A DNA stretch of 64,000 nucleotides, from NCBI GenBank assembly GCA_043756865.1, contig JAYUQG010000019.1:101467-165466 (forward strand), in the 5' to 3' direction. Made by a program: the position numbers and the translations under genes. Origin of the DNA: a bacterium (GTDB taxonomy: Bacteria; Patescibacteriota; Minisyncoccia; Phycocordibacterales; UBA6899). Of this stretch, positions 6,396-45,543 are shown in pieces (positions within the stretch are counted from its first letter, which is position 1; each line of letters starts with the position of its first letter). Under the pieces are notes generated by a model. The model had not been told where the DNA came from. It ran no database searches and saw nothing but the letters and a program-made list of their open reading frames with translations.

Positions 6396-6557
6396 GCGTT
6401 TATCGAGAGTACGGAGTAGGGAATTGGCCCGATGATACCGTCAGCAACCACCTCTGGAGAGGAGCGGTGCTAAATCCAATCCCTTATAGGGGAGATGAAT
6501 GTGGTTGGAGGAATAATGGCAACCAAAAAAGTCTTTCCCAAACGGAAGGCTTTTTTG
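6396..6557 (+). promoter_or_regulatory. SAM-I (S-box) riboswitch with a terminator-type expression platform, upstream of metK
   Basis: UUUAUCGAGAG..GGAGUAGGGAAUUGGCCCGAUGAUACC..CAGCAACC...GGUGCUAAAUCC...CCCUUAUAGGGG..GAUGAA matches the SAM-I conserved cores (GAGGGAnnGGCCCGAUGA, GCAACC, GGUGCUAAAUCC). P1 pairs UUUAUC with GAUGAA. Downstream hairpin gtctttcc..ggaaggc followed by ttttttg. A TGTTATAAT -10 lies about 20 nt upstream at 6371-6379. Confidence 0.75.
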
Positions 6558-10627: not shown

Positions 10628-10729
10628 TCGATGCACCTCTGGGTTGAGTTAAGGAACTCCTGTCATTAAACTACAACTGTTTCTAGTTTGCGCAAGGGAA
10701 AGCTGTGTTACAATAAAGCTTGCACGAAT

Positions 10730-12544
10730 ATGGAGCAAGAACCACTACAAGCAGGGAAGAGGATTCTCAAAGAAGCGGGGATACCCCACGGCGGTAAAGT
10801 ATTTCTTTTATTGCTTCCGACCATGCTTATCGCCGGAGCAATTGGCTTGGGATGGCTCGCATACTGGCTTCCGCAAACGACATACGCAGCATATACCTAT
10901 CAGGTAATTGCCGGACTTGGACTTATCGAGGCGATTATTATATCTGCAATGCTTTTTGTTATCCTTCCGGGGTATCTCCGTTTTACTGACAGTGCTAGTG
11001 AGGCCGTTAATACTACCGCCTCGAAAGGCGAGCGTTATGTCGCCGCACTTGTAGGCTCGGGGCTCGGTTTTTGGGAATACGATATAGCCAAAAGTGAAGT
11101 CTTTTTTTCAGGGAGTATGTGTGCGATGCTTGGCTATGCAGATCACGACAAAGTGAGCCCAATGAGTTTCTGGTGGGATTCCGTACATCCCGAAGACCGC
11201 GAGGGAATGAGGCGGAGCATGGAATACAGCATGGAGAAACGCACACCTGACTACTCCATCGAATACCGCATAAAAAAGTTTAATGGTGAATACATGTGGG
11301 TTGCCGATAAAGGAAAAGTGGTGGTTGACCACACAGGAACTGCAGTACAACTTGCGGGTGTTACACAGGATGTTTCTAATATCAAACGCGTGCAAGAGGT
11401 ACTCGAAAGTCGTACGCTCGAGCTAGAAGATGCCACGAACAAAATTGAGCAGGAAATTCAGAATGTGCGTAAATTCCAAAAAGCCGTTGATTCGTCCACG
11501 GAGGCTGTTTCGATTACCACCCCTGACGGCGCCATCGTGTACGTCAACCCTGCATGGTCAGTACTCAATGGATACACTGAAGCTGAGGCTCTTGGTAGAA
11601 ACCCGAAGTTACTCAAAAGCGGGGAATCGAAGCCCGAAACGTTCATCGCCATGTGGGAGAAGATTGTCGCAGGGGTTCCATTTCGCACCGAGGACGTATT
11701 CAATCGTCGCAAAGATGCTTCGACCTACCAAGGTGAACTCTCAATTTTCCCCATCCGAGAGGGGAACCAGACACTTTTCTACGTGTCGCTCTGCCAAGAC
11801 ATCACCTTGCGCAAGGAGGTTGATCGCGCGAAGACCGAATTTGTTTCACTGGCATCACATCAATTACGCACACCACTTTCCGCAATTCGCTGGTACTCGG
11901 AGATGCTACTTTCCAAATATGTGGGTGAACTTAACGACAAACAGCGTCAATATGTAAAGGAGATTTATGCAGGAAATCTACGTATGGTTGAGCTCGTCAA
12001 CGCACTATTAAATGTTTCCCGTATCGACCTTGGCACCTTTGCGGTTGAACCAGAGCCGGTTGATTTGGTTGAAATTTGCGAAAGTGTGCTTTCCGAACTC
12101 GCACCGCAAATTATCGAAAAGAAGCAGACTGTCGACAAGATATTCAACAGCGCACCAAAAACATACAGTGCGGATCAAAAACTTATTCGTATTGTATTCC
12201 AGAACTTCCTTTCAAACTCGGTAAAATATACGCAACCAGAAGGCCATATCACCGTAGAAATCAGTACACGCGATAACAACCTCTACATTCGTGTCTCAGA
12301 CAACGGGTACGGTATACCAAAGAGTCAACACGGCAAAATCTTTGAGAAGCTCTTCCGTGCCGACAACGTACGCCAAAAGGATACCGAAGGTACAGGACTC
12401 GGTATATATATCGTAAAAGCCATTGTGGAGTCCTCTGGAGGCAAGATTTGGTTCGAATCCGAGGAGAACCAAGGGACAACATTCCACGTATTGATGCCTC
12501 TATCAGGTATGCCAAAGAAATCAGGGGTAAAGGGCTTGGCATAG
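10730..12544 (+). CDS. Membrane sensor histidine kinase with two N-terminal TM helices, PAS domains, HisKA and HATPase_c
   Basis: FVSLASHQLRTPLSAIRWYSEMLL is the H-box. GTGLGIYIVKAIVESSGGKIWFESEENQGTTFHVLMPL is the G2 box. PAS-like segments precede. The track ORF begins at a TTG at 10688, and the first ATG is at 10730. Confidence 0.85.
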   Translation: MEQEPLQAGKRILKEAGIPHGGKVFLLLLPTMLIAGAIGLGWLAYWLPQTTYAAYTYQVIAGLGLIEAIIISAMLFVILPGYLRFTDSASEAVNTTASKGERYVAALVGSGLGFWEYDIAKSEVFFSGSMCAMLGYADHDKVSPMSFWWDSVHPEDREGMRRSMEYSMEKRTPDYSIEYRIKKFNGEYMWVADKGKVVVDHTGTAVQLAGVTQDVSNIKRVQEVLESRTLELEDATNKIEQEIQNVRKFQKAVDSSTEAVSITTPDGAIVYVNPAWSVLNGYTEAEALGRNPKLLKSGESKPETFIAMWEKIVAGVPFRTEDVFNRRKDASTYQGELSIFPIREGNQTLFYVSLCQDITLRKEVDRAKTEFVSLASHQLRTPLSAIRWYSEMLLSKYVGELNDKQRQYVKEIYAGNLRMVELVNALLNVSRIDLGTFAVEPEPVDLVEICESVLSELAPQIIEKKQTVDKIFNSAPKTYSADQKLIRIVFQNFLSNSVKYTQPEGHITVEISTRDNNLYIRVSDNGYGIPKSQHGKIFEKLFRADNVRQKDTEGTGLGIYIVKAIVESSGGKIWFESEENQGTTFHVLMPLSGMPKKSGVKGLA

Positions 12545-12603
12545 ATGCTAATTCTGACTTATCCCTATTCTCAGTCCTTAAAAGGTGTTACGATAATAAT
12601 TAC

Positions 12604-13008
12604 ATGGAAGACAAGAAACAGCGCACAATATTGGTACTTGAGGATGAACGGCAGCTCGCAAAGGCAGTACGGGAGGCCTTTATTGAACGGGGCTTTGACC
12701 CCATCGTTGTTTCCACTGTGGATGACGGCATCAAACAGCTGGAAAACTTAAAGACTGTAGACGTAATCTGGCTCGACCACTACCTACTAGGTACGGGCAA
12801 TGGGCTCGATTTTGTTGTACAATTAAAGAATCACGCTGAATGGAAAAACATTCCTATTTTTGTGGTTTCCAATACCGCTTCAACGACAAACATCCGCTCC
12901 TATATCCAGCTTGGCGTTTCAAACTATTACACCAAAGCTGACTACGATATCACCCAAATTATTAACGACATTGAGTACGCGCTCACACAGCAGAAACAAA
13001 ACAACTAA
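12604..13008 (+). CDS. Single-domain CheY-like response regulator receiver
   Basis: RTILVLEDERQLAKAV...VDVIWLDHYLLGTGNGLDFVVQLK...IPIFVVSN. The track ORF's N-terminus overlaps the HK gene, so the start is placed at the internal ATG. Confidence 0.75.
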   Translation: MEDKKQRTILVLEDERQLAKAVREAFIERGFDPIVVSTVDDGIKQLENLKTVDVIWLDHYLLGTGNGLDFVVQLKNHAEWKNIPIFVVSNTASTTNIRSYIQLGVSNYYTKADYDITQIINDIEYALTQQKQNN

Positions 13009-13014
13009 AACACC

Positions 13015-13404
13015 ATGCCCGGAACGATTGACAAAAAAATACTGATAGTTGAAGACGAAACACCGTTGCGCAATGCGGTCTCTGATATTCTTACCTTTGA
13101 GGGATTTACTGTATTTCAGGCAAAGAATGGTCAGGAAGGACTCGATATCTCACTCAAGGAACATCCCGACCTCATTCTCCTCGACCTCATGATGCCCGTC
13201 ATGGATGGCCTCACCATGCTCGAGAAACTCCGCCAAGACCAAGACTTCGGCAAAAGCGCTGCGGTCATACTCCTCACTAATATCAATGATCCTGAGAAAG
13301 TTGCTCAGGCCACCGAAGCAGGTTCGTATGACTTTCTTGTGAAGTCGGACTGGAACATTGAGGATGTAGTGAAGAAAATCAAAGGCAGGCTCGCAATCGA
13401 ATAG
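13015..13404 (+). CDS. Single-domain CheY-like response regulator receiver
   Basis: KILIVEDETPLRNAVSDIL...PDLILLDLMMPVMDGLTMLEKLR...AAVILLTN...YDFLVKS. Confidence 0.8.
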   Translation: MPGTIDKKILIVEDETPLRNAVSDILTFEGFTVFQAKNGQEGLDISLKEHPDLILLDLMMPVMDGLTMLEKLRQDQDFGKSAAVILLTNINDPEKVAQATEAGSYDFLVKSDWNIEDVVKKIKGRLAIE

Positions 13405-20392: not shown

Positions 20393-21096
20393 TCGCCTCT
20401 TGACGAGTAATCTGATTGCTATGTGTAATATTTTTTTACTAAACAGGGGTTATTTGTTTTCAATGCACAGAAAAGGAGTAGGCCGAGGAAAGACAGTAGC
20501 GTTCTTACACAACCAAGGAGTTGGGCATGATTCCAATCATGCTGGATCCCAAGGGATACCCTCGGCCGATGCTTGTGTGCAGCGGTGGTATATCACTGAA
20601 TGGGGAGTGGCGCTTCGCGTTCAACAATATTGGCTGCGTTCCAATCCGCGTCGTTCAATGACACCGACAATCGGGTCAGAGTTTTCGAATTCTGTGCTGA
20701 TGATTCCTTCATGCACACCATTTCCTTGGTCAGGTCAACGCGTCCTCTCGAGTAGTTCCCTAAAGAGGGAATTGCGTGCAAGTGCGTAATACCCAACTCA
20801 AGTTTTTTTGCGGCTTTATCTATTTCACTTTTGGTTAACAAGGAGCGCATACCTAAGTCAAAATGTGCGCTTATTTTTTGAAACCGCAACGAATAACAAC
20901 ACGTTTTCTGTATGTCGCAATCATGTGGAGAGGATATATTCTATTAAACACATTGCGTCCATCGTAAGTGAGTACAATGTCTGTAATAATTTCCATTGCT
21001 AAACGGCATAAGTACTAATGGGCTCTAGGCACGCCGTATTATCTCGGAGCAGTGTAGGTGCACACGAGGTGCACAACGTGTTAAATTAAAGAAATC

Positions 21097-21885
21097 ATGA
21101 AACAAACACAAATTTACATCATACTTGGAATACTTGCACTGTTATTTATCGGACTTTTCTTGGCCATCCCAAAAGAGCCTGAACTCTCAGAGCCAAACAT
21201 AGCTGCGTGTACTAAGGAGGCGAAAATTTGTCCTGACGGTAGTGCAGTAGGACGCACGGGCACCATCTGCGCATTTGCAACGTGCCCATCATTGGCAGCT
21301 ACATCCACCCCCGATATGCCAAAAGTTGTTGCGTACGGTGACGTGATGCTGTTCGCAGGGGAGACTGCCAACTTTCCCGACGTCGCACTTACGCTACTGC
21401 GCGTAACCGAAGACAGTCGCTGTGCTACTGATGTCACTTGTATTTGGGCAGGTACACTGAAAGCAGAGTTTCAACTTGTCACCCCCCAAATGAAAAGCAC
21501 CTCTACGATTGAGCTCAACAAATCCATTACTGTAGGAGGGTTTGTAGTCTCACTTACTGGTGTAGCTCCCTATCCAAAATCTTTAACTCAAATTACCCCC
21601 GACGCTTATCGCCTCACGATGAAAGTAGAAAAGGTGGGCAGCACAAATCCAAAACCAACAGCGACATCTACTGCCCCGAAACCTACTCAAGCAGGATGTT
21701 ATGTAGGGGGTTGCTCGGGAGAAATTTGTTCCGACAAACCAGACATTGTTTCCACCTGCATGTATCGAGAAGAATACGCATGTTACCGTAGCGCCACCTG
21801 TGCGCGTCAGACTAGCGGTGCATGTGGCTGGACTGAAACTCCTGCCCTCAAGGCGTGCCTCATGAATCCGACACAAGCGCAATAA
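21097..21885 (+). CDS. Secreted or TM-anchored cysteine-rich protein with a C-terminal 8-Cys module
   Basis: N-terminal hydrophobic helix. N-proximal motif CTKEAKICPDGSAVGRTGTICAFATCPS. C-terminus GCYVGGCSGEICSDKPDIVSTCMYREEYACYRSATCARQTSGACGWTETPALKACL. Paralog of 50867..51268, with identical Cys spacing. Confidence 0.6.
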   Translation: MKQTQIYIILGILALLFIGLFLAIPKEPELSEPNIAACTKEAKICPDGSAVGRTGTICAFATCPSLAATSTPDMPKVVAYGDVMLFAGETANFPDVALTLLRVTEDSRCATDVTCIWAGTLKAEFQLVTPQMKSTSTIELNKSITVGGFVVSLTGVAPYPKSLTQITPDAYRLTMKVEKVGSTNPKPTATSTAPKPTQAGCYVGGCSGEICSDKPDIVSTCMYREEYACYRSATCARQTSGACGWTETPALKACLMNPTQAQ

Positions 21886-34528: not shown

Positions 34529-34972
34529 TCAACTATCGAGCGGTGATGCCTGTTGCTCTGTGAGTTCTTCTGTTGGTGCTAAACAATTTTTTATTTTCTC
34601 GATAACGTTTTCCATAGTGAAATCTGATTTGATGAGGTAGTACGATGGCTCGTCTTTTGTGACACCACCCATAATTTTGTCATCAGCACTCAGATTGGTG
34701 AGCAATATCACGGATACGTGTTTCCCATATATACCTGACGTGCGTAGTTTTGCGAGCATGGTCATACCGTCTATGATGGGCATATCAATATCAAGAAGCA
34801 CGAGGTCTGGTTTTTCTGCGAGTATGAGCGCGAGACCGCTTTCCCCGTCAAATGCTTGGAGTACACGAAATCCCGTGTCCGCAAGTGCTCCCGCGAGCGA
34901 TTTGGAGATTACATGGTCATCCTCAATGATTGCTACTTTGTATTTTTTTGCGTCAAATTTTTCCTTTGTCAT
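34529..34972 (-). CDS. Single-domain CheY-like response regulator receiver
   Basis: KVAIIEDDHVISKSL...PDLVLLDIDMPIIDGMTMLAKLR...VILLTN...YLIKS. Paralog of 13015..13404. Confidence 0.8.
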   Translation of the reverse strand: MTKEKFDAKKYKVAIIEDDHVISKSLAGALADTGFRVLQAFDGESGLALILAEKPDLVLLDIDMPIIDGMTMLAKLRTSGIYGKHVSVILLTNLSADDKIMGGVTKDEPSYYLIKSDFTMENVIEKIKNCLAPTEELTEQQASPLDS

Positions 34973-34998
34973 GAGTGTGTTTGCGTAATTGTTACGGG

Positions 34999-35400
34999 CT
35001 ATTTGTTGGTAAAATATACTCGCACTTTTTCCATAATTTCTGGAAGTGCATGTTGTGATTTCACTATGTAGTCACTGGCACCCAGGGAGAGCCCGCGCTC
35101 GACGTCGTCGTTGCTACCCAGCATCGTGAGCATAAAAACGGGAATATGCTTTGTTTTTGCATTCTTTTTGAGTGCTTCGAGCACGTCAAAACCATTTTTT
35201 TTGGGCATTAGGAGATCAAGCAAGATTAAGTTTGGCTGCTGTGCATTCGCCAATCGCAAACCATCCTCCCCGTCATATGCACAAAATGTTTCAAAGCCGG
35301 AATCGTTGAGTTCCTCAGAAAGCACTTTTGAGAGTACGGCATCGTCTTCAACGAGAAGAATTTTTATTTTAGACTCTGAATTTAATTCTATGACTTTCAT
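34999..35400 (-). CDS. Single-domain CheY-like response regulator receiver
   Basis: KILLVEDDAVLSKVLSEEL...PNLILLDLLMPKKNGFDVLEALK...IPVFMLT...ASDYIVKS. Confidence 0.8.
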   Translation of the reverse strand: MKVIELNSESKIKILLVEDDAVLSKVLSEELNDSGFETFCAYDGEDGLRLANAQQPNLILLDLLMPKKNGFDVLEALKKNAKTKHIPVFMLTMLGSNDDVERGLSLGASDYIVKSQHALPEIMEKVRVYFTNK

Positions 35401-35468
35401 GTGTTGATATTGATATTGATAGAGACGCAGCTTGCGTAGATTAATATAATGCAGGAAGTGTTGTGTGA

Positions 35469-36851
35469 CTATTGTGTCCTGTGTCCAATTTGGGGTACAA
35501 GGGCAACCGGCAATTCAACGTAAAACCTGGAACCCGCATTGTCATCGCCGTCTGCGAACGCACTCTTGTTTGTTATCCTGATCGGTGACTCAAACCAAAT
35601 CTTCCCACCCAAGAGGTATGTGGCGCGTTCCGCAATGAAAAGTCCAATACCTGTGCCGTCTGTTTTATAAAGCTTTGCATTGCTCGCCCGCACAAATTTC
35701 TCAAAAATTCTCGATTGCTCCGATATTGGAATACCAATACCCGTATCCTCAATTTCAATCCGAAACGTGTTGCTTTGTATTTTTAAGACAATAGTAATAC
35801 TCCCCCCCACTCCTGTGTACTCAATAGCGTTCGAGACGAGGCTTTGGATAATATTGTGTAATGAGTTTTTATCCGTCATCACGTGGAGTTCGTTTGGGTG
35901 ATTGTCAAAAATCAATTTCAACCCTTTCTTGTCGAGCAGTGGGCGGCATTCTTCGATATAGTTTCTAATAAAGCCAATAACCTCAATAGGTTCTTGAGAG
36001 AGTACCACTCGACCAGCTTCGATGCGTGACAAGTTCAGTAATAAATCCACCATTTCTGTGAGTCGTTTTGCAGACACATGGATATCATTCAGGTACTCTA
36101 CTCCCTTTGGCGTTAGTTTTTCTTTTTTAGTAAATCTCTCAATAACCCACTGAATACCGGTTAGGGGAGTACGAAGTTGATGTGAAGCAATTGAGATAAA
36201 TTCTCCTTTTATACGATCAAGCTCTTTTTCTTTCGTGGTATCTCGGAATACTTCAACCACGCCGATTAACTCGGTGCCCACGACGATGGGTGCGATGGTG
36301 AGTGATACCGGGAAAGATAACCCATCTTTGCGCTCAAATATCGCCGCTGTAGCAATCGCAGTTACCTGTGTTTGACCCTTAAGGATTTTTGTAGATAATC
36401 GTTCGGCATCGGGAATCCTTCTTCCGTTCTCATCCGACATATATACCATTTCAATCAGCGGTTGGCCCTTAACTTCAGACTCTCTCCAGCCCAGCATTTT
36501 CTCGAAAGCACCGTTTACCATGGTGATGTTCCCATCTCGATCAGTAGCAACGAGTCCGTCACCGATACTCGCGAGCACGGCAGCGTCCTTGGCTTTTGCT
36601 TCTATCAATTTCTCGCGCTCCTGTTCAAGGTCATCGAGTAGGTTCGTGGTAGCCTTGCGTGTACTCTTGAGCTCTTCCTGCTCACGCTCAAGATCTTCCC
36701 ATAGATTGAAGGACGCCCTGCGCAAGTCATCAAGCTCCGTGACCCGTTCGGCGAGTACTCGCGTGAGTGCGGAAACTTGCTGTTCTAGTGCACTTATTGG
36801 CGCACCAGGTGGCGACCCGATACCCTTTTTTTTCTTGTCTAATTTGGTCAT
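35469..36851 (-). CDS. Soluble sensor histidine kinase with an N-terminal coiled coil, PAS domain, HisKA and HATPase_c
   Basis: FISIASHQLRTPLTGIQWVIERF (H-box). DGTGIGLFIAERATYLLGGKIWFESP (G-box). No TM segment. The ATG at 36851 is preferred, since the track ORF starts at a TTG overlapping the upstream gene. Confidence 0.85.
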   Translation of the reverse strand: MTKLDKKKKGIGSPPGAPISALEQQVSALTRVLAERVTELDDLRRASFNLWEDLEREQEELKSTRKATTNLLDDLEQEREKLIEAKAKDAAVLASIGDGLVATDRDGNITMVNGAFEKMLGWRESEVKGQPLIEMVYMSDENGRRIPDAERLSTKILKGQTQVTAIATAAIFERKDGLSFPVSLTIAPIVVGTELIGVVEVFRDTTKEKELDRIKGEFISIASHQLRTPLTGIQWVIERFTKKEKLTPKGVEYLNDIHVSAKRLTEMVDLLLNLSRIEAGRVVLSQEPIEVIGFIRNYIEECRPLLDKKGLKLIFDNHPNELHVMTDKNSLHNIIQSLVSNAIEYTGVGGSITIVLKIQSNTFRIEIEDTGIGIPISEQSRIFEKFVRASNAKLYKTDGTGIGLFIAERATYLLGGKIWFESPIRITNKSAFADGDDNAGSRFYVELPVALVPQIGHRTQ

Positions 36852-36873
36852 TGCAAAATGTGCGGGATTATAC

Positions 36874-38073
36874 CTAGCCTTGAGTGCCGGACTTTGCCTT
36901 AAGTAGTGCAATTTCTTCTTTCAGCTCTATCATTTTGAGCTCTCGTCCCGTCATCATTTTGTTTAATTTTTCGAGTCCTTCTAGATATGCCGCAGCTTTT
37001 TTCTCAGCGAATTTTCTATCGCCGATATCTCGTATGTTGCATTGTATCATTTCTGTGCCATCAGTGAGCGGATAACGATTACTCACAAACTCAACCTGAT
37101 GTTCTAGGCCATCTTTTGACTTAATAGGGAGGTCGTCATAGCGTACATACCCTTTTGTCTGCAATTCCTCGAACATCATCTTGGCATACTTAATATCGGG
37201 AACCGCGCCGATTTCCCAGAGTTTTTTGCCAATTATTTCAGCTAGTGAGTATCCCATCAGTTCAAGTAAAAATGGGTTAGCGTCAACTATCTTTTCGGTT
37301 GCAGGGTCAATAAGCAGGACGCCATCTTTCGCGGTTTCAAAAAGTTTTCTATATTGTACTTCAGAAATAAGGAGCTTGCGTCGCACGCTTTCTTTCTCCT
37401 CCGCTGTTACTGCTAATTGTCGCGCGGTAGCCGCCAATTTGTTTCTCACGCTCTCTTTCTCCTTCGCAGCCGTCGCGAGTTTTCGGGCGGTAACTGCTAG
37501 CTTGCGTCGCACACTCTCTTTCTCGTCTGCAGTAGCCGCAAGTTTTTTTGCTTTAATATGCAGTTTTTCTGCGGTGATCGCAAGTTTGCGCCGCACACTC
37601 TCTTTTTCACCTGCCGTAACAGCAAGCTTGCGTGCAGTAACCGCAAGTTTGTTGCGCACACTCTCTTTTTCTCGAGCAGTGACGGCGAGTTGCCGTGCAG
37701 TAACGGCAAGTTTACGTCGCACGCTCTCTTTCTCCTTCGCTGTCACTGCAAGCTGTCGCGCGGTTACTGCAAGTTTACGTCGCACGCTCTCTTTCTCCTT
37801 CGCGGTCACTGCAAGCTGTCGTGCGGTTACGGCAAGTTTGTTGCGCACACTCTCTTTCTCCTTCGCGGTGACAACAAGTTTGCGTCGCACGCTCTCTTTC
37901 TCCTTCGCGGTCACTGCAAGCTGTCGTGCGGTTACGGCAAGTTTGTTGCGCACACTCTCTTTTCTCTTCGCGGTTACAACGAGCTTGCGTCGCACACTCT
38001 CTTTCTTCTCAGCTGTTACCTTGAGCTTGAGTGCGGTGCTATTTAAGGCCGTTGTGAAATTGTTTTTGTTCAT
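36874..38073 (-). CDS. Cytoplasmic protein with a tandem 21-aa repeat array (KEKESVRRKLAVTARQLAVTA, about 10 units), a PAS domain and a C-terminal coiled-coil signalling-type helix. No output domain.
   Basis: The repeat array covers aa 20-230. Then a PAS-like segment (LLIDPATEKIVDANPFLLELMGYSLAEIIGKKLWEIG). The C-terminus MTGRELKMIELKEEIALLK. Located between the ECF sigma gene and the HK gene. Confidence 0.7.
   Translation of the reverse strand: MNKNNFTTALNSTALKLKVTAEKKESVRRKLVVTAKRKESVRNKLAVTARQLAVTAKEKESVRRKLVVTAKEKESVRNKLAVTARQLAVTAKEKESVRRKLAVTARQLAVTAKEKESVRRKLAVTARQLAVTAREKESVRNKLAVTARKLAVTAGEKESVRRKLAITAEKLHIKAKKLAATADEKESVRRKLAVTARKLATAAKEKESVRNKLAATARQLAVTAEEKESVRRKLLISEVQYRKLFETAKDGVLLIDPATEKIVDANPFLLELMGYSLAEIIGKKLWEIGAVPDIKYAKMMFEELQTKGYVRYDDLPIKSKDGLEHQVEFVSNRYPLTDGTEMIQCNIRDIGDRKFAEKKAAAYLEGLEKLNKMMTGRELKMIELKEEIALLKAKSGTQG
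37375..38030 (-). repeat. Tandem 63-bp (and 42-bp variant) coding repeats of about 10 units
   Basis: cgcacgctctctttctccttcgcggtcactgcaagctgtcgtgcggttacggcaagtttgttg is reiterated with point variants. These generate the spurious plus-strand ORFs 37181..38122 and 37558..38046. Confidence 0.85.
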
Positions 38074-38087
38074 AATATTTTGGTACT

Positions 38088-38609
38088 TTATTGTTGCAAG
38101 GCAGGTTCATAGAGTAATTTAAGTTTTTCGAGTCCACGGTGTACCTGTACGGCTATGGCGTTCTTTGTTTGACCAGTACAGAGTGCAATCTCTGCAAGCG
38201 AGAGGTCTTCCACGTAGCGCATGTGCACAACCTTTTTATATCGTTCAGGTAACTGCGCTATCAAGAGCACCGCCGTCTCTCCATCTAATATGTCAAACAA
38301 CCGTGAGGAAAAACCGGTTGTTGGTTCGTATCCTTTTTCAATAAGCAAATCAAGCGAAACCGTTTTGCCTTTACGGTACTCGTCAATTACGAGATTGTTC
38401 AATACGTGGTAGAGAAAGGCCTTCATCAGGTCGATTCTCCCTCCTTTTACGAGGTATGCCCACGTTTTTAAGAATGTGTCTTGTACAAGGTCCTCACTCG
38501 TATCCCGATTGTTTGTCTTAAAGTAAGCATGAACCTTCATTCCTTTTCCGTAGTCTTGATGTGCTACGGTAAGTAACTTACGTTGTTTTATGGTTTGTAA
38601 TGGACTCAT
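38088..38609 (-). CDS. ECF-type RNA polymerase sigma factor (sigma-70 regions 2 and 4)
   Basis: DLVQDTFLKTWAYL (region 2). LPERYKKVVHMRYVEDLSLAEIALCTGQTKNAIAVQVHRGLEKLK (region 4). Confidence 0.85.
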   Translation of the reverse strand: MSPLQTIKQRKLLTVAHQDYGKGMKVHAYFKTNNRDTSEDLVQDTFLKTWAYLVKGGRIDLMKAFLYHVLNNLVIDEYRKGKTVSLDLLIEKGYEPTTGFSSRLFDILDGETAVLLIAQLPERYKKVVHMRYVEDLSLAEIALCTGQTKNAIAVQVHRGLEKLKLLYEPALQQ

Positions 38610-38728
38610 ACCTTTAGTTAGCTATTACAAGGAGCATAGTCCTCACCCATCTTAAGATGTAATAAGACAAATTTGATCAATTTTTAGATGAAAAAATGTT
38701 CTATAATTTCCTGAGAAAGTAGGGTTAT

Positions 38729-40075
38729 TTACGTATGTGCCCCAAGATAGAGCGGGTTTATTTTGAGTGACTGTGTCGTGAGTATGAAAAAATCCTTGAT
38801 CCCGGTTTCTACGGCAATATTTTTTCTAATCGCGTCGGCAATATTATAGAGCTTTTTCCAATCAAATCGCGCTTCCGCGTCCATTAGTTCAGAGATCTCA
38901 GAAAACTGCCAGTCATTCTGTGTTGCGTCGTCGTCATGAAAAATAACACGAAGTAAGCCGTATTGCCTGCTAAATTTTTGTATCTTTATCTCGCTTGCGC
39001 CGACATGGAGTATTCCATTTTCTTGATCAAACGAAGCGGTAGATACGGTTTCACCTCGTTCGACGTGTTTTGCGTCGCGTTTCATAAGGATCTTGTTCAG
39101 ATGTTCCAGCTCAGCGGTATTCGTCCGATAAAGGTCTTCGACGAGCTTAAGCTTTGTGACGTCAACGATAACACCCTGCACTGAGCGCTTCCCTTGGTAG
39201 ACAAACGGACTGGATGCTATTTCGACATCGCGCACTTCGCCACCAAGTGTGATGATTTTATACGGCACCAGCGGAGTATTGATATTTTCGGTTACCACCG
39301 CATTTATTTGCTTGCGCACTTGGTCATGAAAATCCTCGTGAATAAAATTCAGTAGAGGCTTTCCAATAATCTCTTCCATTTGCTGACATCCGAATAGTTT
39401 GACCGCGGCGGTGTTTAAGAATCGAAACGCGCCATCGTTGTGTACAAAAAGTGCGTGAGGGGAGAACTCTACGATTCTTTTATAGTGCTCCTCATTTTCT
39501 GCGATTATTCGTGCTGCATTGGCGTGTACGGAAATATCCACCCAAGAGCCAATAATTTCTGCAGTACTCTCGTCAGTGGCCTTGATATAGTTCGCACAAT
39601 CGATAAACCAATGATACGTCTCATCCTTGTGGAGCCAGCGATAGGTCATCTCAATAGCCTGCATACTTCCTTGCTCAAGTTGTATAAGCTTTTCAATAAC
39701 TTCGAGCTTGTCTCTGGGGTGTAGGCGGTCTGCCCAAAAAGTGCGGTCACGCCCAAAGTCATTGAACTCGAATCCGGTACTCTGAACGAAGTTTGGCCCC
39801 ATCCACAGCACCTCCCAGCCCCGCCTCTCGGTGTTGAATTTTTGCTTATAGAGCACCGCAGGAGGAAAATAAAATGTTTTCTGGTCCATTACCACAACCC
39901 CTTCTACTTTGTTGAGTTTTCCTTTTTTAACCATACTGGAGAGGATAGCACCTATATTTGTGAAACTATCATAAAAAATAGCCGACGACAATGAATTGCC
40001 TTGTGCGGGCACTGTCTTAAGAAAGTCTTTGTATTTCTTAAGAGTGGTACGGAATACGATTTGTTGTATGAACAT
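38729..40075 (-). CDS. Tandem PAS/PAC-domain protein without an output domain. The start is uncertain, with an internal ATG around 39934 possible.
   Basis: Two PAS-like blocks (MQAIEMTYRWLHKDETYHWFIDCANY... and HALFVHNDGAFRFLNTAAVKLFG...VPYKIITLGGEVRDVEI). The annotated 5' end overlaps the start of the divergent CAP gene. Confidence 0.6.
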   Translation of the reverse strand: MFIQQIVFRTTLKKYKDFLKTVPAQGNSLSSAIFYDSFTNIGAILSSMVKKGKLNKVEGVVVMDQKTFYFPPAVLYKQKFNTERRGWEVLWMGPNFVQSTGFEFNDFGRDRTFWADRLHPRDKLEVIEKLIQLEQGSMQAIEMTYRWLHKDETYHWFIDCANYIKATDESTAEIIGSWVDISVHANAARIIAENEEHYKRIVEFSPHALFVHNDGAFRFLNTAAVKLFGCQQMEEIIGKPLLNFIHEDFHDQVRKQINAVVTENINTPLVPYKIITLGGEVRDVEIASSPFVYQGKRSVQGVIVDVTKLKLVEDLYRTNTAELEHLNKILMKRDAKHVERGETVSTASFDQENGILHVGASEIKIQKFSRQYGLLRVIFHDDDATQNDWQFSEISELMDAEARFDWKKLYNIADAIRKNIAVETGIKDFFILTTQSLKINPLYLGAHT

Positions 40076-40682
40076 GCAACGAAAAGTGTTGAGTCACGGA
40101 ACAGCATATGGTGGGACACTCTTTCACCGCGCAATCATTATACTTGGTATATGCACAATGTTTGTAAGTGTTTTGCTTTTACACACAAACGTAGCAAGTG
40201 CCAGAACCGTGTACCAAACGCCCGATATTGACGCAGTCGACACACGCGACGGTTTTTCCCCGTTACACACTATTACTGTGGAGGAATTACTTGACCTCAC
40301 AAACAAGGATCGCGTGGATGCTGGACTTCCTGTGCTTACAATAAATCAGGAGCTCGTTAATTCGTCTGAACTTAAGGTAAAAGATATGGCAACGAGGGGG
40401 TACTTTGCTCACGTGACACCGGAAGGGAAAAGTCCATGGTATTGGTTTGCTTTGGCAGGATATAACTATCACTCAGCCGGCGAGAATCTTGCAGTAGATT
40501 TTATTGGTTCTTCCGCGATAGAAGATGCGTGGATGAAGTCACCAAGCCACCGAAAAAATATCCTGAACTCGAAATATACAGAAATTGGAATCTCACTTTC
40601 ATCAGGTTACTTCAAGGGTCGCCACACCATCTTTGTTGTTGAGCATTTTGGAAACCGACGGACGAGCCACTTTCAATTCTAA
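40074..40682 (+). CDS. CAP/SCP/PR-1-like (YkwD-type) domain protein with a signal peptide or N-terminal TM
   Basis: GYFAHVTPEGKSPWYWFALAGYNYHSAGENLAVDFIGSSAIEDAWMKSPSHRKNILNSKYTEIGIS. Paralog of 2689..3786. Confidence 0.75.
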   Translation: MQRKVLSHGTAYGGTLFHRAIIILGICTMFVSVLLLHTNVASARTVYQTPDIDAVDTRDGFSPLHTITVEELLDLTNKDRVDAGLPVLTINQELVNSSELKVKDMATRGYFAHVTPEGKSPWYWFALAGYNYHSAGENLAVDFIGSSAIEDAWMKSPSHRKNILNSKYTEIGISLSSGYFKGRHTIFVVEHFGNRRTSHFQF

Positions 40683-40869
40683 ATAATGTCGTAGCAGGAA
40701 TTTGCCCAAATGCATAAACGGGGTACAGTAAATGCAGAGGAAGGTCTGCAATGAAATGGGTCCCCACATGCTGGTAGCAATGTTGCTCAACAGAAAGGCA
40801 AAACACGCATATATTACACTCTTTCAACACACACTGTAATCAATTGGCTCCTGAAACGGCGATACGTAC

Positions 40870-41460
40870 ATGGATACCGCAAACACAAACACCGGGCATG
40901 GGCATAAACAAGAGGGGTCAGATTTTTTTGATCGCTTATGGGAAGAGAGCTGGACGCTCATCAAGACGGTTGTTGATGTCGTCAGAGAGCCCATGTTGAT
41001 ACTTGATAAAGAACTTCGCGTGATGGCGGCAAACGAGTCGTTCTACCGTACGTTTCAAGTGGAACAAAAAGACACTGAGGGCAAGATCGTGTATGAATTA
41101 GGAGACGGACAGTGGGGAATACCTGCGCTCCGCAAGCTTCTCGAAGATATTCTCCCCAAAAATACATTTTTTAAGGGCTTTGAGGTCGCTCATGATTTCC
41201 CGTCCATCGGACGCAAGGTCATGATACTGAATGGTCGGCAGATTCACTGCAAAGAGAACTCTACTTCAAAACTCTATTCGCCGATTATTTTGTTGGCACT
41301 GGAAGATGTCACTGATATGATGATGATTGCACAAAAGCTCGCAAATCACACAAATCAATTTGAAGAAAAAATAAGCGAACGAACACAATACACGGAAATG
41401 CAAATCAATAAATTAGAAAAAGAAATCAATGAGTTAAAAATGAAATCACAAAACTCCTGA
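40870..41460 (+). CDS. PAS-fold protein with a C-terminal coiled coil
   Basis: ILDKELRVMAANESFYRTFQVEQKDTEGKIVYELGDGQWGIPALRKLLEDI. C-terminus EKISERTQYTEMQINKLEKEINELKMK. Confidence 0.5.
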   Translation: MDTANTNTGHGHKQEGSDFFDRLWEESWTLIKTVVDVVREPMLILDKELRVMAANESFYRTFQVEQKDTEGKIVYELGDGQWGIPALRKLLEDILPKNTFFKGFEVAHDFPSIGRKVMILNGRQIHCKENSTSKLYSPIILLALEDVTDMMMIAQKLANHTNQFEEKISERTQYTEMQINKLEKEINELKMKSQNS

Positions 41461-41499: not shown

Positions 41500-42759
41500 A
41501 TGAAAATAATTCACACATCAGCACGTTTCTCAGTTTTAGTAGTTGGACTCATGCTTGGCTTTGCGGGACCAGTCGCTGTCTTTGCCGCAAGTCCTGCAGC
41601 TATCAATCTCGGCGCGGCAGGTAATTATGCTATCCTTGCAAAAACAGGTATCTCAACAACGGGCGCAACCGCAGTAGTCGGAGACCTTGGTATTAGCCCT
41701 GCTGCCTCAACGTACATTACGGGATTTGCACTCACTCTCCCTTCAGCGAGTGCATATTCAACCTCCGCGCTTGTCACTGGGAAGGTGTATGCACCAGGAT
41801 ACGCTGATCCGACTACGTCGAACCTGACAACAGCGGTGCTTGATATGCAAAATGCATATACTGATGCAATGGGGCGCGCAGCGGGCGTCACGGAGCTCGG
41901 AGCAGGCAATATTGGAGGACTCACCCTTACGTCAGGTGTCTACAAGTGGGGAACAGGAGTTCTTGTGCCTACAAACGTGACGCTTTCAGGCAGCGCAAAC
42001 GATGTATGGATTTTCCAAATCGCGCAAAACCTTAATCTGAGTTCAGGTGTGCAAATAGTGCTTTCGGGCGGTGCACAGGCGAGCAATGTCTTCTGGGCAG
42101 TTGCAGGTCAGACGACGCTTGGCACAACTGCGGTCATGAACGGAACCGTGCTTGATCAAACGGCAATTGTGTTGAATACCGGAGCAGTGTTAAATGGACG
42201 CGCGCTTGCTCAAAGCGCAGTGACACTTGATGCAAGCACGGTGACCCTCTCAAGTGCATCTGCAGTACCGGCTGTGCCAGCAACTCCTGCGACTCCCGCA
42301 GTGCCAACCGTCACACCTCCCGTATCGGCGACACCTGCTACTCCTGCAGTTTCAAGCAGTGGCGGAAGTTCAGTTTCATCACAAAGTGGAGTTGCCCCTG
42401 TTTCGGAAGAAGCAAAGGCACGTATGCAAGTGCAGATCGCAGAGCTTTCCGTCACACTTGAAGCACTTCGTGCCCAACGCACAATGCCTGCAGCTTCTGC
42501 ATTTGGACAACAAGTGCGCTCCATCGCGACTGACTTCAAAGTGGGAAGCAGGGGAGCAAACGTGAGTGTACTTCAGCGGTTCCTCATGGAACAGGGTAAG
42601 GGTTCTGCCGCTCGCGCACTTGCTACTCATGGTTCCACAACATACTTTGGTCCGCTCACGCGAGCCGCACTCGCAGAGTTTCAAGCAAGCGTCGGTATCA
42701 GCCCCGCACTTGGCAACTTCGGCCCTATTACTAGAGCATATGTCAGCACGCATTTCTAA
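41500..42759 (+). CDS. Secreted DUF3494 (ice-binding-like fold) protein with a Pro/Thr/Ala linker and a C-terminal PG_binding_1 domain
   Basis: Signal peptide. AINLGAAGNYAILAKTGISTTGATAVVGDLGISPAA...NVFWAVAGQTTLGTTAVMNGTVLDQTAIVLNTGAVLNGRALAQSAVTL. C-terminus GANVSVLQRFLMEQG...YFGPLTRAALAEFQASVGI. Confidence 0.75.
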   Translation: MKIIHTSARFSVLVVGLMLGFAGPVAVFAASPAAINLGAAGNYAILAKTGISTTGATAVVGDLGISPAASTYITGFALTLPSASAYSTSALVTGKVYAPGYADPTTSNLTTAVLDMQNAYTDAMGRAAGVTELGAGNIGGLTLTSGVYKWGTGVLVPTNVTLSGSANDVWIFQIAQNLNLSSGVQIVLSGGAQASNVFWAVAGQTTLGTTAVMNGTVLDQTAIVLNTGAVLNGRALAQSAVTLDASTVTLSSASAVPAVPATPATPAVPTVTPPVSATPATPAVSSSGGSSVSSQSGVAPVSEEAKARMQVQIAELSVTLEALRAQRTMPAASAFGQQVRSIATDFKVGSRGANVSVLQRFLMEQGKGSAARALATHGSTTYFGPLTRAALAEFQASVGISPALGNFGPITRAYVSTHF

Positions 42760-42783
42760 TCATTGTTCGATAACGCACATCTT

Positions 42784-44580
42784 ATGAATTACAAAAACAA
42801 ATTATTGACCTCGCTTGGTATTGCACTGCTCGTTGTGGTGTCAGGTCCACAGATTGCGAGTGCGGCATCAACTCCGTCACTCGGTACAGCTGGCACGTAC
42901 AGTATTCTCTCCAGCACTTTTACTCGTAATATTGCGGTAACAACCATTACTGGAAACCTTGGGTACACCACCTTAAGTGGTGGGGGGTCACACACGGTCA
43001 ATGGTATTACCAATACTCCTGCTCCTGCTCAATCGGGGATAGACCAGAATAGTGCATCAACTACTCTTGCTTCAGAGCCATGCACATTTACTTTTGCACC
43101 AGGAGCGATTGACCTCTCGACGGATACCACGCACGGTCCAATAGGAGTTTATACACCAGGAGTCTACTGTACTGCAGCATCGAGTGCCGCTTCAATCGGG
43201 ACAGCAGGGTTGACTCTCTCTGGCGCAGGAACTTATATTTTTAGGATCTTTGGCGCGCTCACTTCAGCAGCAAACTCGCAAGTCAGACTAGCTAATGGGG
43301 CATCATCGTGTGACGTTTTCTGGTCTCCCGCAGCTGCGACAACCCTTGGGGCAAATACCATATTCGTGGGTACGGTTATTGATGATGCAGGTATTACTGT
43401 TGGCAATACCACCTCATGGTTTGGACGAGCCTTGGCATTTGGTGGAACTGTAACGACTGACACAGATATTATTAACTCGTCTTGTATTACTGGCGCGTTC
43501 CCGAGCGCAGTACCTATTGCCACTATCAATGTTGTTAAAGTGGTCGTGAATGATGGCGGTGGAACTAAAACCGTTGCAGACTTTCCGCTCTTCGTTAACG
43601 GTACGCCGGTTTCTTCGGGTGTGACCAATACTTTTCCCGCACCTGCTCCTCGGTATCAGATCTCCGAAACGTACGATTCTTCAAAGTACTCACAGAGCTT
43701 CTCCGGTGATTGTGGCTTAAATGGTGGAATGAGCCTTGTCCCGGGTGACAACAAGTTCTGCATCATCACGAACAACGACATAAAAGCACCCATTGTTCCT
43801 GTTGTTCCGCCATTGATCAAGGTATTGAAGGTGGCCAGCCCCCTTTCCCTCCCGCTCGGCCCTGGACCAGTTACGTACACCTATACGGTCAAGAATATTG
43901 GAACGGTCCCAGTGACCAACGTCACGATGGTCGGTGACACCTGCGCTCCGATCATTTTAGTCGCCGGTGACGTAAATGCCGACTCAAAGATCGATGTGGG
44001 TACGACATGGACGTTTCGCTGCACCACAACACTCGCGAAAACACACACAAACACCGTCGTTGCGACTGGATGGGCGAATGGCATTTCCGCAGTTGATATT
44101 GCAAGTGCCACTGTTGTTGTTGGTGCACCAATAGTGCCACCACTGATACACATTACAAAGACTCCAAGTCAGTTCACACTTGGGGTCGGTGGGGGATTTG
44201 TAACATACACCAAAATGGTCCATAACCCTGGGACGGTCCCGCTTGCCAATGTTCGCCTCACGGACAATGACTGCAACCCAATTTCTGGCCCCTTCGGTGA
44301 CGCAAATAAGAACAGCCTACTTGACCCAAGTGAGTCATGGGCATACGCCTGCCGAACGAATCTCAGTAAAACAACAACTAACACTGTTTTTGTAACTGGC
44401 GAAGCCAATGGCCTGATCGCAAGAGACTTCGCGATTGCAACTGTCGTTGTTGCTGTGCCAAAATTGCCAAATACGGGAATCGCTCCTGATGAGCAAAACA
44501 TTCTATGGCCAATCTTGATTGGACTCTCCGTCTTTGCTGTGGGACTGCTCTCCATAGTTGGAATAAAAAAGGCACTATAG
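42784..44580 (+). CDS. Secreted DUF3494-like protein with three beta-sandwich repeats (VxNDGGGTxxxxDFxLxVNG type) and a C-terminal LPNTG sortase signal
   Basis: Signal peptide. SLGTAGTYSILSSTFTRNIAVTTITGNLGYTT...DVFWSPAAATTLGANTIFVGTVID. Repeats INVVKVVVNDGGGTKTVADFPLFVNG. C-terminus KLPNTGIAPDEQNILWPILIGLSVFAVGLLSIVGIKKAL (LPXTG, hydrophobic stretch, basic tail). The start is placed at the ATG at 42784, since the track begins at a TTG. Confidence 0.75.
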   Translation: MNYKNKLLTSLGIALLVVVSGPQIASAASTPSLGTAGTYSILSSTFTRNIAVTTITGNLGYTTLSGGGSHTVNGITNTPAPAQSGIDQNSASTTLASEPCTFTFAPGAIDLSTDTTHGPIGVYTPGVYCTAASSAASIGTAGLTLSGAGTYIFRIFGALTSAANSQVRLANGASSCDVFWSPAAATTLGANTIFVGTVIDDAGITVGNTTSWFGRALAFGGTVTTDTDIINSSCITGAFPSAVPIATINVVKVVVNDGGGTKTVADFPLFVNGTPVSSGVTNTFPAPAPRYQISETYDSSKYSQSFSGDCGLNGGMSLVPGDNKFCIITNNDIKAPIVPVVPPLIKVLKVASPLSLPLGPGPVTYTYTVKNIGTVPVTNVTMVGDTCAPIILVAGDVNADSKIDVGTTWTFRCTTTLAKTHTNTVVATGWANGISAVDIASATVVVGAPIVPPLIHITKTPSQFTLGVGGGFVTYTKMVHNPGTVPLANVRLTDNDCNPISGPFGDANKNSLLDPSESWAYACRTNLSKTTTNTVFVTGEANGLIARDFAIATVVVAVPKLPNTGIAPDEQNILWPILIGLSVFAVGLLSIVGIKKAL

Positions 44581-44664
44581 TCCGTCGATCTGTTTGCAAA
44601 TGAAGAAAAAAGAGAGCCAGATAAATTTGTCTGGCTCTTACGGCACGGCAAATATTAGAAATCT

Positions 44665-45543
44665 ATGAAATCAAAAAACATATTTGGGCAGATGTTGCTC
44701 ATTGTCAGCCTTATCAGCCTTGGAGTGTTTGCGACAGCCCCAACTTTAGTGTTAGCCTCCACATTCATAACAAACCTCCAACTGGGCAGCAATGAGGCCG
44801 GTGTAAAAGATCTGCAAATGCTCTTGAACATGAGCACTGACACACAAGTTGCAGTAGTGGGTGCCGGATCACCGGGTAATGAAACAACATACTTCGGACA
44901 AGCAACAAAAGCTGCGGTTATTAAATTCCAAAACAAATATGCCCTAGAGATTCTTACGCCAGCTGGCTTAACTAAGGGCACCGGCTTTGTCGGTAAACTC
45001 ACTCGCGTAAAGTTGGGCATGATGAACAGACCAGTACAGCTGATTGAAAACGTCGTCATGCTCCCCAAACAAGAACCTGTAAGTATCGGGTTGCCGACGC
45101 GACTCAAAATTCCCTCACTCGCCATCGACACTTCTTTCGAGTTTGCCGGTCTTACGCCAGAGGGAGCAATGGATGCGCCGAAGGGTCCTACTGCTGTGGC
45201 GTGGTTTAAACTCGGTCCGCGACCAGGAGATGCGGGCAGTGCTGTAATTTCCGGACACTATGGCTGGAAAAATAGCATACCTGCGGTATTTGATAATTTG
45301 CACACGTTGGTAAAAGGAGACAAACTCTACGTTCTCGATGAACGCGGGGCGACCACTACTTTCATCGTGCGCGAATTGCGAACCTACGGGGCGCAAGACG
45401 ATGCCTCGGACGTGTTTGGTTCTAGTGACGGGAAGTCACATCTAAATCTCATTACCTGTAAGGGAATTTGGAACAAGAATGAAAAAAGTTACTCGGAGCG
45501 ACTCGTCGTATTTGCTGATAAAAATATAGATGAGAGTTTGTAG
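44665..45543 (+). CDS. Sortase (transpeptidase) with an N-terminal TM segment and a PG_binding_1 domain
   Basis: [20 protein letters not shown]...[17 protein letters not shown] is a PG-binding domain. Catalytic region AVISGHYGW...[17 protein letters not shown]...HLNLITCKG (TLXTC-type Cys). Confidence 0.8.

Follow-up and report, generated by a model that had tools for sequence, protein, structure and literature searches.

A conserved pair of genes for an extracytoplasmic function sigma factor and a short PAS protein in Patescibacteria, with the PAS protein as a candidate soluble regulator of the sigma factor

The 64,000-nucleotide stretch analyzed here (the window; contig JAYUQG010000019.1 of assembly GCA_043756865.1, positions 101,467 to 165,466 of the forward strand) derives from a member of the Patescibacteriota and contains, on its minus strand between positions 34529 and 38609, five co-directional open reading frames (ORFs) for a sigma factor of the extracytoplasmic function (ECF) type, a protein with repeats and a PAS domain, a soluble histidine kinase (HK1) and two receiver-only response regulators (RR1 and RR2). 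Located 2.2 kb from the sigma gene and outside this cluster, a sixth gene encodes a short PAS protein, hereafter PAS196. Comparison with related loci revealed that the sigma factor and the ~190-aa PAS196 form a conserved pair whose genes are almost always neighbors. The pair appears to be coupled to PAS kinases and receivers in one regulatory module, in which PAS196 is a candidate soluble anti-sigma-like regulator, a reading to which we give an even chance. The genes concerned are the following.

38088-38609, minus strand: ECF-type sigma factor of 173 aa that has sigma-2 and sigma-4 but lacks sigma-3 (Pfam, NCBIfam)
36874-38073, minus strand: repeat/PAS protein with a C-terminal helix, 399 aa, PAS domain at residues 237-359 (Pfam)
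35469-36851, minus strand: HK1, soluble histidine kinase, 460 aa, with coiled coil, PAS, HisKA and HATPase_c (Pfam)
34999-35400, minus strand: RR1, receiver-only protein, 133 aa, Response_reg alone (Pfam)
34529-34972, minus strand: RR2, receiver-only protein, 147 aa, Response_reg alone, paralog of the REC_C family (Pfam, paralog scoring)
40870-41460, plus strand: PAS196, short PAS protein, 196 residues (homologs, adjacency, AlphaFold2 model)

The ORF list of the window and the Pfam and NCBIfam searches bore out the preliminary description of this locus, made from the DNA alone, as five tightly packed minus-strand genes with these domain types, and the profile searches that it proposed recovered the Sigma70_r2/r4, PAS, HisKA and Response_reg domains, together with HATPase_c in the kinase. 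The intergenic gaps, read from the sigma gene to RR2, are 14, 22, 68 and 26 nt; three of these had been given correctly, whereas the supposed abutment or overlap of the repeat and kinase genes is an effect of a TTG-extended ORF starting at 36911. The likely start of HK1 is the ATG at 36851, which leaves the 22-nt gap and is preferred because the resulting 460 aa match the lengths of its orthologs (423 and 458 aa). HK1 scores 59.5 bits with HisKA and 83.7 bits with HATPase_c, and the H-box SIASHQLRTPL can be read in its sequence. The two receivers match Response_reg with 84 and 63 bits and carry the phospho-acceptor, Thr and Lys motifs in translation (LLDLLMP, MLT and IVK in RR1; LLDIDMP, LLT and LIK in RR2). 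The gene in the usual anti-sigma position, downstream of the sigma gene, had been noted to encode neither a transmembrane segment nor a ZAS motif, and the searches agree: 19-residue hydropathy windows gave no membrane-helix-like segment in the cluster proteins (maximum 1.89, within the PAS core of the kinase), the zinc motif HxxxCxxC is impossible in both the repeat/PAS protein and PAS196, which have one Cys apiece, and no anti-sigma Pfam family matched a cluster protein at E ≤ 0.01. In lacking a Pfam match, the zinc motif and a membrane helix, the window proteins differ from class I anti-sigma factors (ASD/ZAS). As also described before, the PhyR-type sigma-like domain is present in neither receiver, both of which match Response_reg only. 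Pfam detected no STAS domain in the cluster, the sole HATPase_c belongs to a full HisKA kinase, and no small anti-sigma gene of the NepR type lies next to the sigma gene, which is separated from the repeat gene by just 14 nt.

The sigma factor matches Sigma70_r2 at residues 27-81 (29.6 bits, Pfam cutoff 24), Sigma70_r4_2 at residues 116-163 (44.9 bits, cutoff 25.7) and the NCBIfam model TIGR02937 (sigma70-ECF; 52.3 bits, cutoff 42.9). Region 3 (PF04539) gave no match at E ≤ 0.01, and the linker joining sigma-2 to sigma-4 has ~34 residues; this composition is that of the ECF (group 4) sigma-70 family, and all specific NCBIfam sigma models scored far under their cutoffs. Homologs number 2050 at ~65% identity, with matches in 508 stretches of GTDB species-representative genomes, from which 80 sigma loci (named L001 onward) were kept, their ORFs called and searched with the window proteins. 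The kept loci are labelled almost all as Paceibacterota, Parcubacteria or Patescibacteria, and by these matches the sigma belongs to a highly conserved, Patescibacteria-wide family. The gene downstream of it varies, with dozens of unrelated families over 74 loci, barring a few PAS196 copies; a conserved small anti-sigma gene was looked for at this position and not found, these loci sharing nothing there, and the earlier remark that the sigma has no recognizable conventional anti-sigma alongside holds for the window and for the 74 related loci. In one sister contig (L081) the sigma is 90% identical and the gene order is that of the window. A wider comparison of neighborhoods, suggested together with the preliminary description, showed that the linkage of the sigma to PAS kinases and receivers recurs, whereas the order sigma, repeat/PAS protein, kinase, receiver, receiver is restricted to this genome and the sister contig.

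The conserved partner of the sigma was found not within the five genes, where it had been sought, but beyond their borders, in PAS196. This protein has 2440 homologs at ~70% identity, all of ~190 aa among the matches listed. Its gene lies within 3 kb of the sigma gene in 57 of 79 loci, and 72 of the 79 have at least one of PAS196 and a related kinase. Among the 74 loci with enough flanking sequence, 43 have PAS196 divergent from the sigma within 500 nt, the spacer being usually 200-240 nt, and a reciprocal look-up of two PAS196 homologs (L083 and L086) found the sigma again in divergent orientation. In two further loci PAS196 follows the sigma gene directly (L018, 31-nt gap; L028, 10-nt gap), and a sigma gene followed by its regulator gene is the classic sigma/anti-sigma order.

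An AlphaFold2 model of PAS196 built with 37 homologs (predicted local distance difference test, pLDDT, 81) comprises an N-cap helix (residues 15-37), a PAS core (residues 42-146) and a C-terminal helix of 48 residues (148-195). Eight residues of PAS196 are invariant: Y59, Q63, Y75, Q81, W82, H108, N121 and R123. The closest solved folds found with Foldseek are effector-less short LOV proteins, NifL and FixL, at sequence identities of 11-20%. PAS196 shares with the short LOV proteins PpSB1-LOV and SBW25-LOV the N-cap helix, the PAS core, the long C-terminal helix and the lack of an effector; unlike them, it has no flavin-adduct Cys motif (GxNCRFLQ), which is missing from both its sequence and the family consensus, and its assignment as a LOV protein was rejected on this ground. 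NifL, a PAS protein, inhibits a transcription activator through direct binding and so offers a precedent, although the target here would be an ECF sigma of the sigma-70 family and not a sigma-54 activator.

The divergent spacers between sigma and PAS196 genes share the motif TGTAAT-N16-CG(G/T)C (62 sites in 43 loci; CG(G/T)C is written CGKC below), with a 16-nt spacer after GTAAT in 62 of 64 sites. It stands before the sigma gene in 33 and before PAS196 in 31 of the 43 loci, and 24 of the 31 PAS196 sites have the ATG 9 nt behind CGKC, which predicts a leaderless or nearly leaderless PAS196 mRNA. By sequence, the motif has the shape of an ECF promoter, and we infer its recognition by this sigma because it stands before the sigma gene itself. 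In the related loci the core matrix gave 0.77 hits per kb within 1 kb of the sigma versus 0.01 per kb at 6-8 kb, and in shuffled loci 1 hit in 1.03 Mb. Independent evidence for the promoter is confined to the hits before other genes, 1-3 kb away, and to this decay with distance. The genes behind the independent hits encode secreted proteins that bind peptidoglycan (18 loci), Ice-binding-like proteins (12 loci), receivers (9 loci) and small membrane proteins of a stress type, in a ~119-aa family (8 loci) and a ~82-aa family (6 loci), which by eye resemble YggT-like and transglycosylase-associated/GlsB-like proteins. Three further patterns were seen in the spacers of L001-L080. Sigma promoters contain two copies of TGTAATA, one -35-like and the other exactly 11 bp upstream of it, a TGTAATA-N4-TGTAATA pair is frequent in mid-spacer between sigma and PAS196, and PAS196 promoters have a conserved ATAGCGAA just upstream.

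When the window was scanned with the position weight matrix, the threshold being the maximum reached in shuffled windows (17.6 bits), only two sites in the 64 kb exceeded it. These sites and the genes associated with them are listed here.

40834-40865, plus strand: promoter motif cTGTAATc-N-aaACGGCg, 22.3 bits, with the final C of CGGC 9 nt from the PAS196 ATG
20981-21012, plus strand: promoter motif, 24.9 bits, the strongest in the window
21097-21885, plus strand: membrane-anchored secreted protein, 262 aa, Cys-rich C-terminus, 85 nt downstream of the 24.9-bit site (ORFs)
41500-42759 and 42784-44580, plus strand: Ice-binding-like surface proteins (Pfam; L082 gene calls)
44692-45543, plus strand: sortase (Pfam; L082 gene calls)

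The gene at 21097-21885 is a probable member of the regulon far from the sigma gene. Both Ice-binding-like genes and the sortase gene follow PAS196 on the same strand with short gaps, and the same order is found in L083 and L086; because these genes are co-directional, PAS196 and the genes at 41500-45543 probably form a single sigma-dependent operon. No site above the shuffle maximum stands before the sigma gene of the window, the PAS-PAS gene upstream of it (see below), the repeat gene, the kinase or the receivers, and sigma-type promoters were accordingly rejected for these genes; only a lone TGTAATA lies 16 nt before the sigma ATG. Scans of the window for consensus sigma-70 promoters and for terminators remained at chance level.

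The repeat/PAS protein contains two features beyond its PAS domain.

37373-38037, minus strand: heptad-based tandem repeat array of 11 KESVR(R/N)KL units and LAVTAxx heptads (Tandem Repeats Finder, TRF; unit spacing)
36889-36981, minus strand: C-terminal helix motif LEKLNKMMTGRELKMIELKEEI (conservation in stand-alone PAS proteins)

The combination of repeat array, PAS domain and C-terminal helix, already recognized in the preliminary description, was confirmed by TRF, Pfam and motif conservation. At the DNA level the array has periods of 63 and 105 nt, with matches up to 93% (TRF), and the 11 KESVR(R/N)KL units lie 14, 21 or 28 residues apart, all multiples of a heptad; the array is predicted to form a coiled coil. 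The C-terminal motif, which has no Pfam family, recurs at the ends of the stand-alone PAS proteins P0320, P0361 (186 aa) and P0285 (408 aa), as well as in L028 and L062. In L028 and L092 (the latter encoding P0320) the orthologs of the repeat/PAS protein carry, instead of the repeats, a PAS domain of the PAS196 type and retain the second PAS domain and the terminal motif LEKLNKMMTGRELKMIELKKEI. There they are not downstream of the sigma gene but head the kinase operon, directly before the HK1 and RR1 orthologs, with a 4-nt overlap with the kinase gene (ATGA) in L028 and a 120-nt gap in L092; a 4-nt overlap is an arrangement usually tied to translational coupling. The same repeats form the kinase N-terminus in L003, L004, L010, L013, L049, L052, L066, L075 and L092, and by these occurrences the array is mobile among proteins. 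There are 11 units in the window versus 9 in the sister contig (L081, 3225-3884), and array-bearing kinases have from about two units to many more; from these differences in unit number, the putative coiled-coil stalk would therefore grow and shrink rapidly. Read most simply, the repeat/PAS protein would serve the adjacent kinase HK1 as an accessory sensor and would not be an anti-sigma, its position behind the sigma gene, which had suggested an anti-sigma stand-in, being specific to this genome and its sister contig. Within the window it has no significant BLASTP similarity to PAS196, and close paralogy of the two was rejected, the link between them running only through the hybrids in L028, L062 and L092.

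HK1 has orthologs in L028 and L092, with core scores of 331 and 322 bits, respectively, followed in both by an RR1 ortholog, so that of the two receivers only RR1 is co-conserved with the kinase. The L092 cluster combines a divergent sigma, PAS196, the accessory PAS protein, the HK1 and RR1 orthologs, another receiver, and a second, repeat-bearing kinase with its receiver; sigma-type promoters precede its sigma gene, accessory PAS gene and RR1 ortholog, and L028 is similar, the motif there too standing before the accessory PAS gene and the RR1 ortholog. In at least 14 other loci a receiver-kinase-receiver operon is divergent from the sigma gene, often with a sigma-type promoter, and the motif precedes such operons in L003, L026, L027, L030, L054, L056, L066 and L069. 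Scoring rejected the sigma-adjacent kinases of the L003 type as HK1 orthologs and assigned them to a paralogous second system of the window (10688-13404), whose kinase we call HK2.

10688-12544, plus strand: HK2, with two N-terminal hydrophobic segments, which may be transmembrane, PAS_3, PAS, HisKA and HATPase_c
12448-13008 and 13015-13404, plus strand: receiver-only proteins of the HK2 system

A different arrangement was found in L046, L052, L075 and L076, where the sigma gene has as divergent neighbors a 222-aa OmpR-type DNA-binding regulator and a repeat/PAS kinase, lacks a promoter of its own type and is preceded instead by TTGACT and GTTAA-N6-GTTAA direct repeats; this suggests a switch to two-component control of the sigma. 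With kinases counted within 8 kb of the sigma, only 4 of 79 loci have one together with PAS196. Overall, the association of the sigma with PAS kinases is robust while the wiring differs between genomes, and the repeated linkage of this sigma family to cytoplasmic PAS kinases and receiver-only proteins, as first supposed from the window alone, is seen across the related loci.

In the clade of the window, likewise in L081, PAS196 and the sigma gene are set apart by two insertions, a CAP-domain gene and a PAS_3-PAS gene. The latter lies directly upstream of the sigma gene, and a palindrome recurs around the two genes.

38729-39934 (maximal ORF to 40075), minus strand: PAS_3-PAS protein, 401 aa from M48, with an uncharacterised ~100-aa C-terminal domain (Pfam; gene calls in L081 and L082)
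38650-38657: palindrome TCTTAAGA upstream of the sigma gene (pattern search)
40015-40022 and 40036-40043: two copies of TCTTAAGA upstream of the PAS-PAS gene (pattern search)

The palindrome has only three copies in 64 kb; each lies upstream of either the sigma or the PAS-PAS gene, and each is conserved in L081. Their number alone is unremarkable, as 10 of 100 shuffles reach three copies; a possible role as operator is suggested by their clustering.

Taken together, these observations can be assembled into the following model. The sigma would read TGTAAT-N16-CGKC promoters, PAS196 would control its activity as a soluble, dimeric anti-sigma-like sensor, and, with PAS196 expression driven by the sigma, the two would form a loop of negative feedback. 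The repeat/PAS protein would serve HK1 in trans as an accessory sensor, probably docking via coiled coils, and HK1 would phosphorylate RR1 and perhaps RR2. Having no output domain, the two receivers would have to act by protein contact, and their most economical targets would be PAS196 or the sigma itself, which would amount, in this speculative step, to a partner switch without PhyR. In this clade the sigma gene would have lost the promoter of its own type; since it now sits between the PAS-PAS and kinase genes, the supply of sigma would be coupled to the PAS-PAS/kinase operon. The partner-switch or phosphorelay interpretation of the preliminary description is kept here as far as it links sigma, PAS proteins, kinase and receivers, and is abandoned for the repeat/PAS protein as the regulator, a part now given to PAS196. 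The bolder proposal, that PAS196 founds a new class of soluble anti-sigma factors in which an ECF sigma is sequestered by a short PAS dimer that senses a ligand and gives way to a phosphorylated receiver-only protein, is, in our judgment, rather less likely to be true than false.

Several observations weigh against assigning PAS196 to the control of the sigma. It resembles no known anti-sigma domain, and is mostly divergent from the sigma rather than co-transcribed with it; about a quarter of the loci lack it within 8 kb of the sigma. Because sites close to the sigma and PAS196 genes served to train the promoter matrix, the hits there are circular, and with no motif before the sigma or kinase genes of the window, autoregulation is not visible here. 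Orthologs of HK1 occur in only three arrangements (the window, L028 and L092), most kinases next to the sigma elsewhere being orthologs of the HK2 system, and the evidence as a whole is comparative, with interaction, phosphotransfer and transcription all predicted. Moreover, the C-terminal helix of PAS196 carries the signature LExK(L/V)xERTxxLE, also found before the PAS domain of kinases, and since this signaling-helix signature is common to both, PAS196 could dock on a kinase and not on the sigma. Its action on kinases is the main rival: PAS196 and the repeat/PAS protein would both be auxiliary kinase sensors that engage through coiled-coil pairing, and a phosphorylated receiver would control the sigma with no anti-sigma involved. 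The helix signature shared with kinase N-terminal helices speaks for this, as do the fusion of a PAS196-type PAS domain into the accessory protein in L028 and L092, the PAS196-like protein directly before the kinase in L062 and the receivers without output domains; yet in most loci PAS196 adjoins the sigma with no kinase within 8 kb, and at ~70% identity it is far more conserved than the sensor regions of the kinases, so that we consider this alternative unlikely, though the least unlikely of those weighed here.

We hold it to be less probable still that the sigma is controlled solely through its synthesis, with PAS196 and the kinases as mere members of its regulon; control would then lie mostly in autoregulation, in some genomes in the OmpR-type regulator, and here in the PAS-PAS protein or a housekeeping promoter. 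The sigma-type promoter stands before PAS196 and the kinase operons just as it would before target genes, the OmpR-type regulator and the GTTAA-N6-GTTAA repeats face the sigma gene in four loci (L046, L052, L075 and L076), and the TCTTAAGA palindromes of the window occur only upstream of the sigma and PAS-PAS genes. However, the near-universal pairing and the sigma-then-PAS196 operons of L018 and L028 exceed what is expected of an ordinary target gene, and a positively autoregulated ECF sigma lacking a brake would be unusual. The arrangement that the gene order of the window suggests at first sight, in which the repeat/PAS protein regulates the sigma and is itself the target of a partner switch driven by the kinase and two receivers, appears improbable to us: its gene is on the same strand as the sigma gene, 14 nt away, the protein is soluble and helical with a PAS sensor, and the sister contig has the identical order, but that position is clade-specific, the orthologs in L028 and L092 head the kinase operon, the gene downstream of the sigma is otherwise unrelated over 74 loci save the few PAS196 copies, and an array that varies in copy number and forms the kinase N-terminus elsewhere fits a sensor stalk better than a sigma-binding surface. 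Finally, relatives do carry the arrays as kinase N-termini, and the TTG-extended kinase ORF runs into the end of the repeat gene, both of which would fit an assembly or frameshift artefact that cut off the N-terminus of the kinase, as the preliminary description had cautioned. Such an origin is hardly credible and was ruled out as an account of the gene: separate orthologous genes exist in L028 and L092, with their own junctions to the kinase, HK1 has its own N-terminal coiled coil and PAS domain and the length of its orthologs, and the repeat/PAS gene is taken as genuine because stand-alone proteins end in the same C-terminal motif.

The favored reading, with PAS196 as the candidate regulator, was compared with known systems. 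In its predicted working the module is most like the alphaproteobacterial EcfG/NepR/PhyR system, yet fails its defining features. As in that system (EcfG being ECF15), with its PAS/LOV kinases and the single-domain receivers MrrA and SdrG, an ECF sigma is tied to cytoplasmic PAS kinases and receiver-only proteins, and soluble regulators carry the sigma's own promoter in what would be feedback loops; unlike it, the system of the window has neither PhyR nor a NepR-like peptide, its candidate regulator is a 190-aa PAS dimer, its lineage is Patescibacteria, and its predicted regulon consists of surface and envelope genes and not of general stress genes. The main text of the ECF re-classification places two-component systems near only a few groups, ECF15, 246, 32, 234 and 39, considers undetected soluble anti-sigma variants likely, and contains no mention of Parcubacteria or PAS domains (Casas-Pastor 2021; PMC7826278). 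The two-component-controlled groups ECF32, ECF39, ECF234 and ECF246, as presented there, likewise have a two-component system beside an ECF sigma without a conventional anti-sigma (PMC7826278). A DNA-binding response regulator like that of ECF32/39 is present only in L046, L052, L075 and L076, whereas the receivers of the window have no DNA-binding domain, and the most conserved neighbor here is a PAS-only protein and not, as in those groups, a two-component system. Kinase systems with a PAS-only third component have a genetic precedent in PcrP/PcrS/PcrR of Azospira suillum, in which a separate PAS protein is encoded by the kinase and regulator genes and is genetically required with them, and whose island also contains an ECF sigma/anti-sigma pair (PMC3884062). 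PcrP and PcrS are, however, membrane proteins and PcrR is a sigma-54 activator, whereas the parts in the window are soluble and its receivers have no output domain. Bacillus sigma-B (RsbW, RsbV and the PAS-phosphatase RsbP) follows the same concept of a soluble anti-sigma relieved by a cascade with a PAS sensor, although the module described here has no STAS domain, RsbW-type kinase or PP2C phosphatase, and its sigma is ECF-type and not of group 3. Full-text literature searches found no papers on ECF sigmas in Parcubacteria, Patescibacteria or the Candidate Phyla Radiation, and literature searches found none on PAS-type anti-sigma factors or describing the sigma/PAS196/kinase module. The earlier impression that the combination is not a described module agrees with these searches, with the module itself now centered on sigma and PAS196 rather than on the five genes.

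To our knowledge, Patescibacteria have very small genomes with few regulators, and almost nothing is known of their transcription control. In these organisms the pairing of sigma with PAS196 points to a so far undescribed manner of sigma control, and the pair, conserved at 65-70% identity, together with a predicted motif of leaderless-type spacing, provides concrete and testable handles. The predicted regulon comprises sortase-linked, Ice-binding-like and peptidoglycan-binding surface proteins. Direct regulation of the sigma by PAS196, if borne out, would extend the ECF repertoire by a new anti-sigma of the sensor type, and if PAS196 founds a new class, the system would be shared by hundreds of Patescibacteria species and would control surface proteins that depend on sortase and may matter for host attachment. 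Even without direct regulation by PAS196, the module marks out an envelope regulon that is conserved within an uncultivated lineage.

Upstream of the sigma gene, the clade-specific PAS-PAS protein ends in a conserved module of ~100 aa (38732-39148, minus strand), IKIQKFSxQY...DWQFSEISEL...KKLYNxAxxIxKKI...GIKDFFxxTTQSxKIN, which gave no Pfam match and has only five detectable homologs. Some of these lie in contexts resembling mobile or defence DNA, and the contexts are uninformative on its identity. Its AlphaFold2 model (pLDDT 45) was excluded from the fold search, and a winged helix is a guess from the pattern of secondary structure. Two other features complete the annotation of the window.

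40068-40682, plus strand: CAP-domain secreted-protein gene, overlapping the maximal PAS-PAS ORF (39934-40075) head to head
6397-6501, plus strand: S-adenosylmethionine (SAM) riboswitch (S box, RF00162), a match of 57.4 bits that exceeds the gathering score

The 64 kb contain no tRNA genes. At the DNA level, conservation with L081 is higher in the 130 nt that separate the CAP start from Met48 of the PAS-PAS protein than in the CAP coding region, and for this reason these 130 nt are probably a regulatory region.

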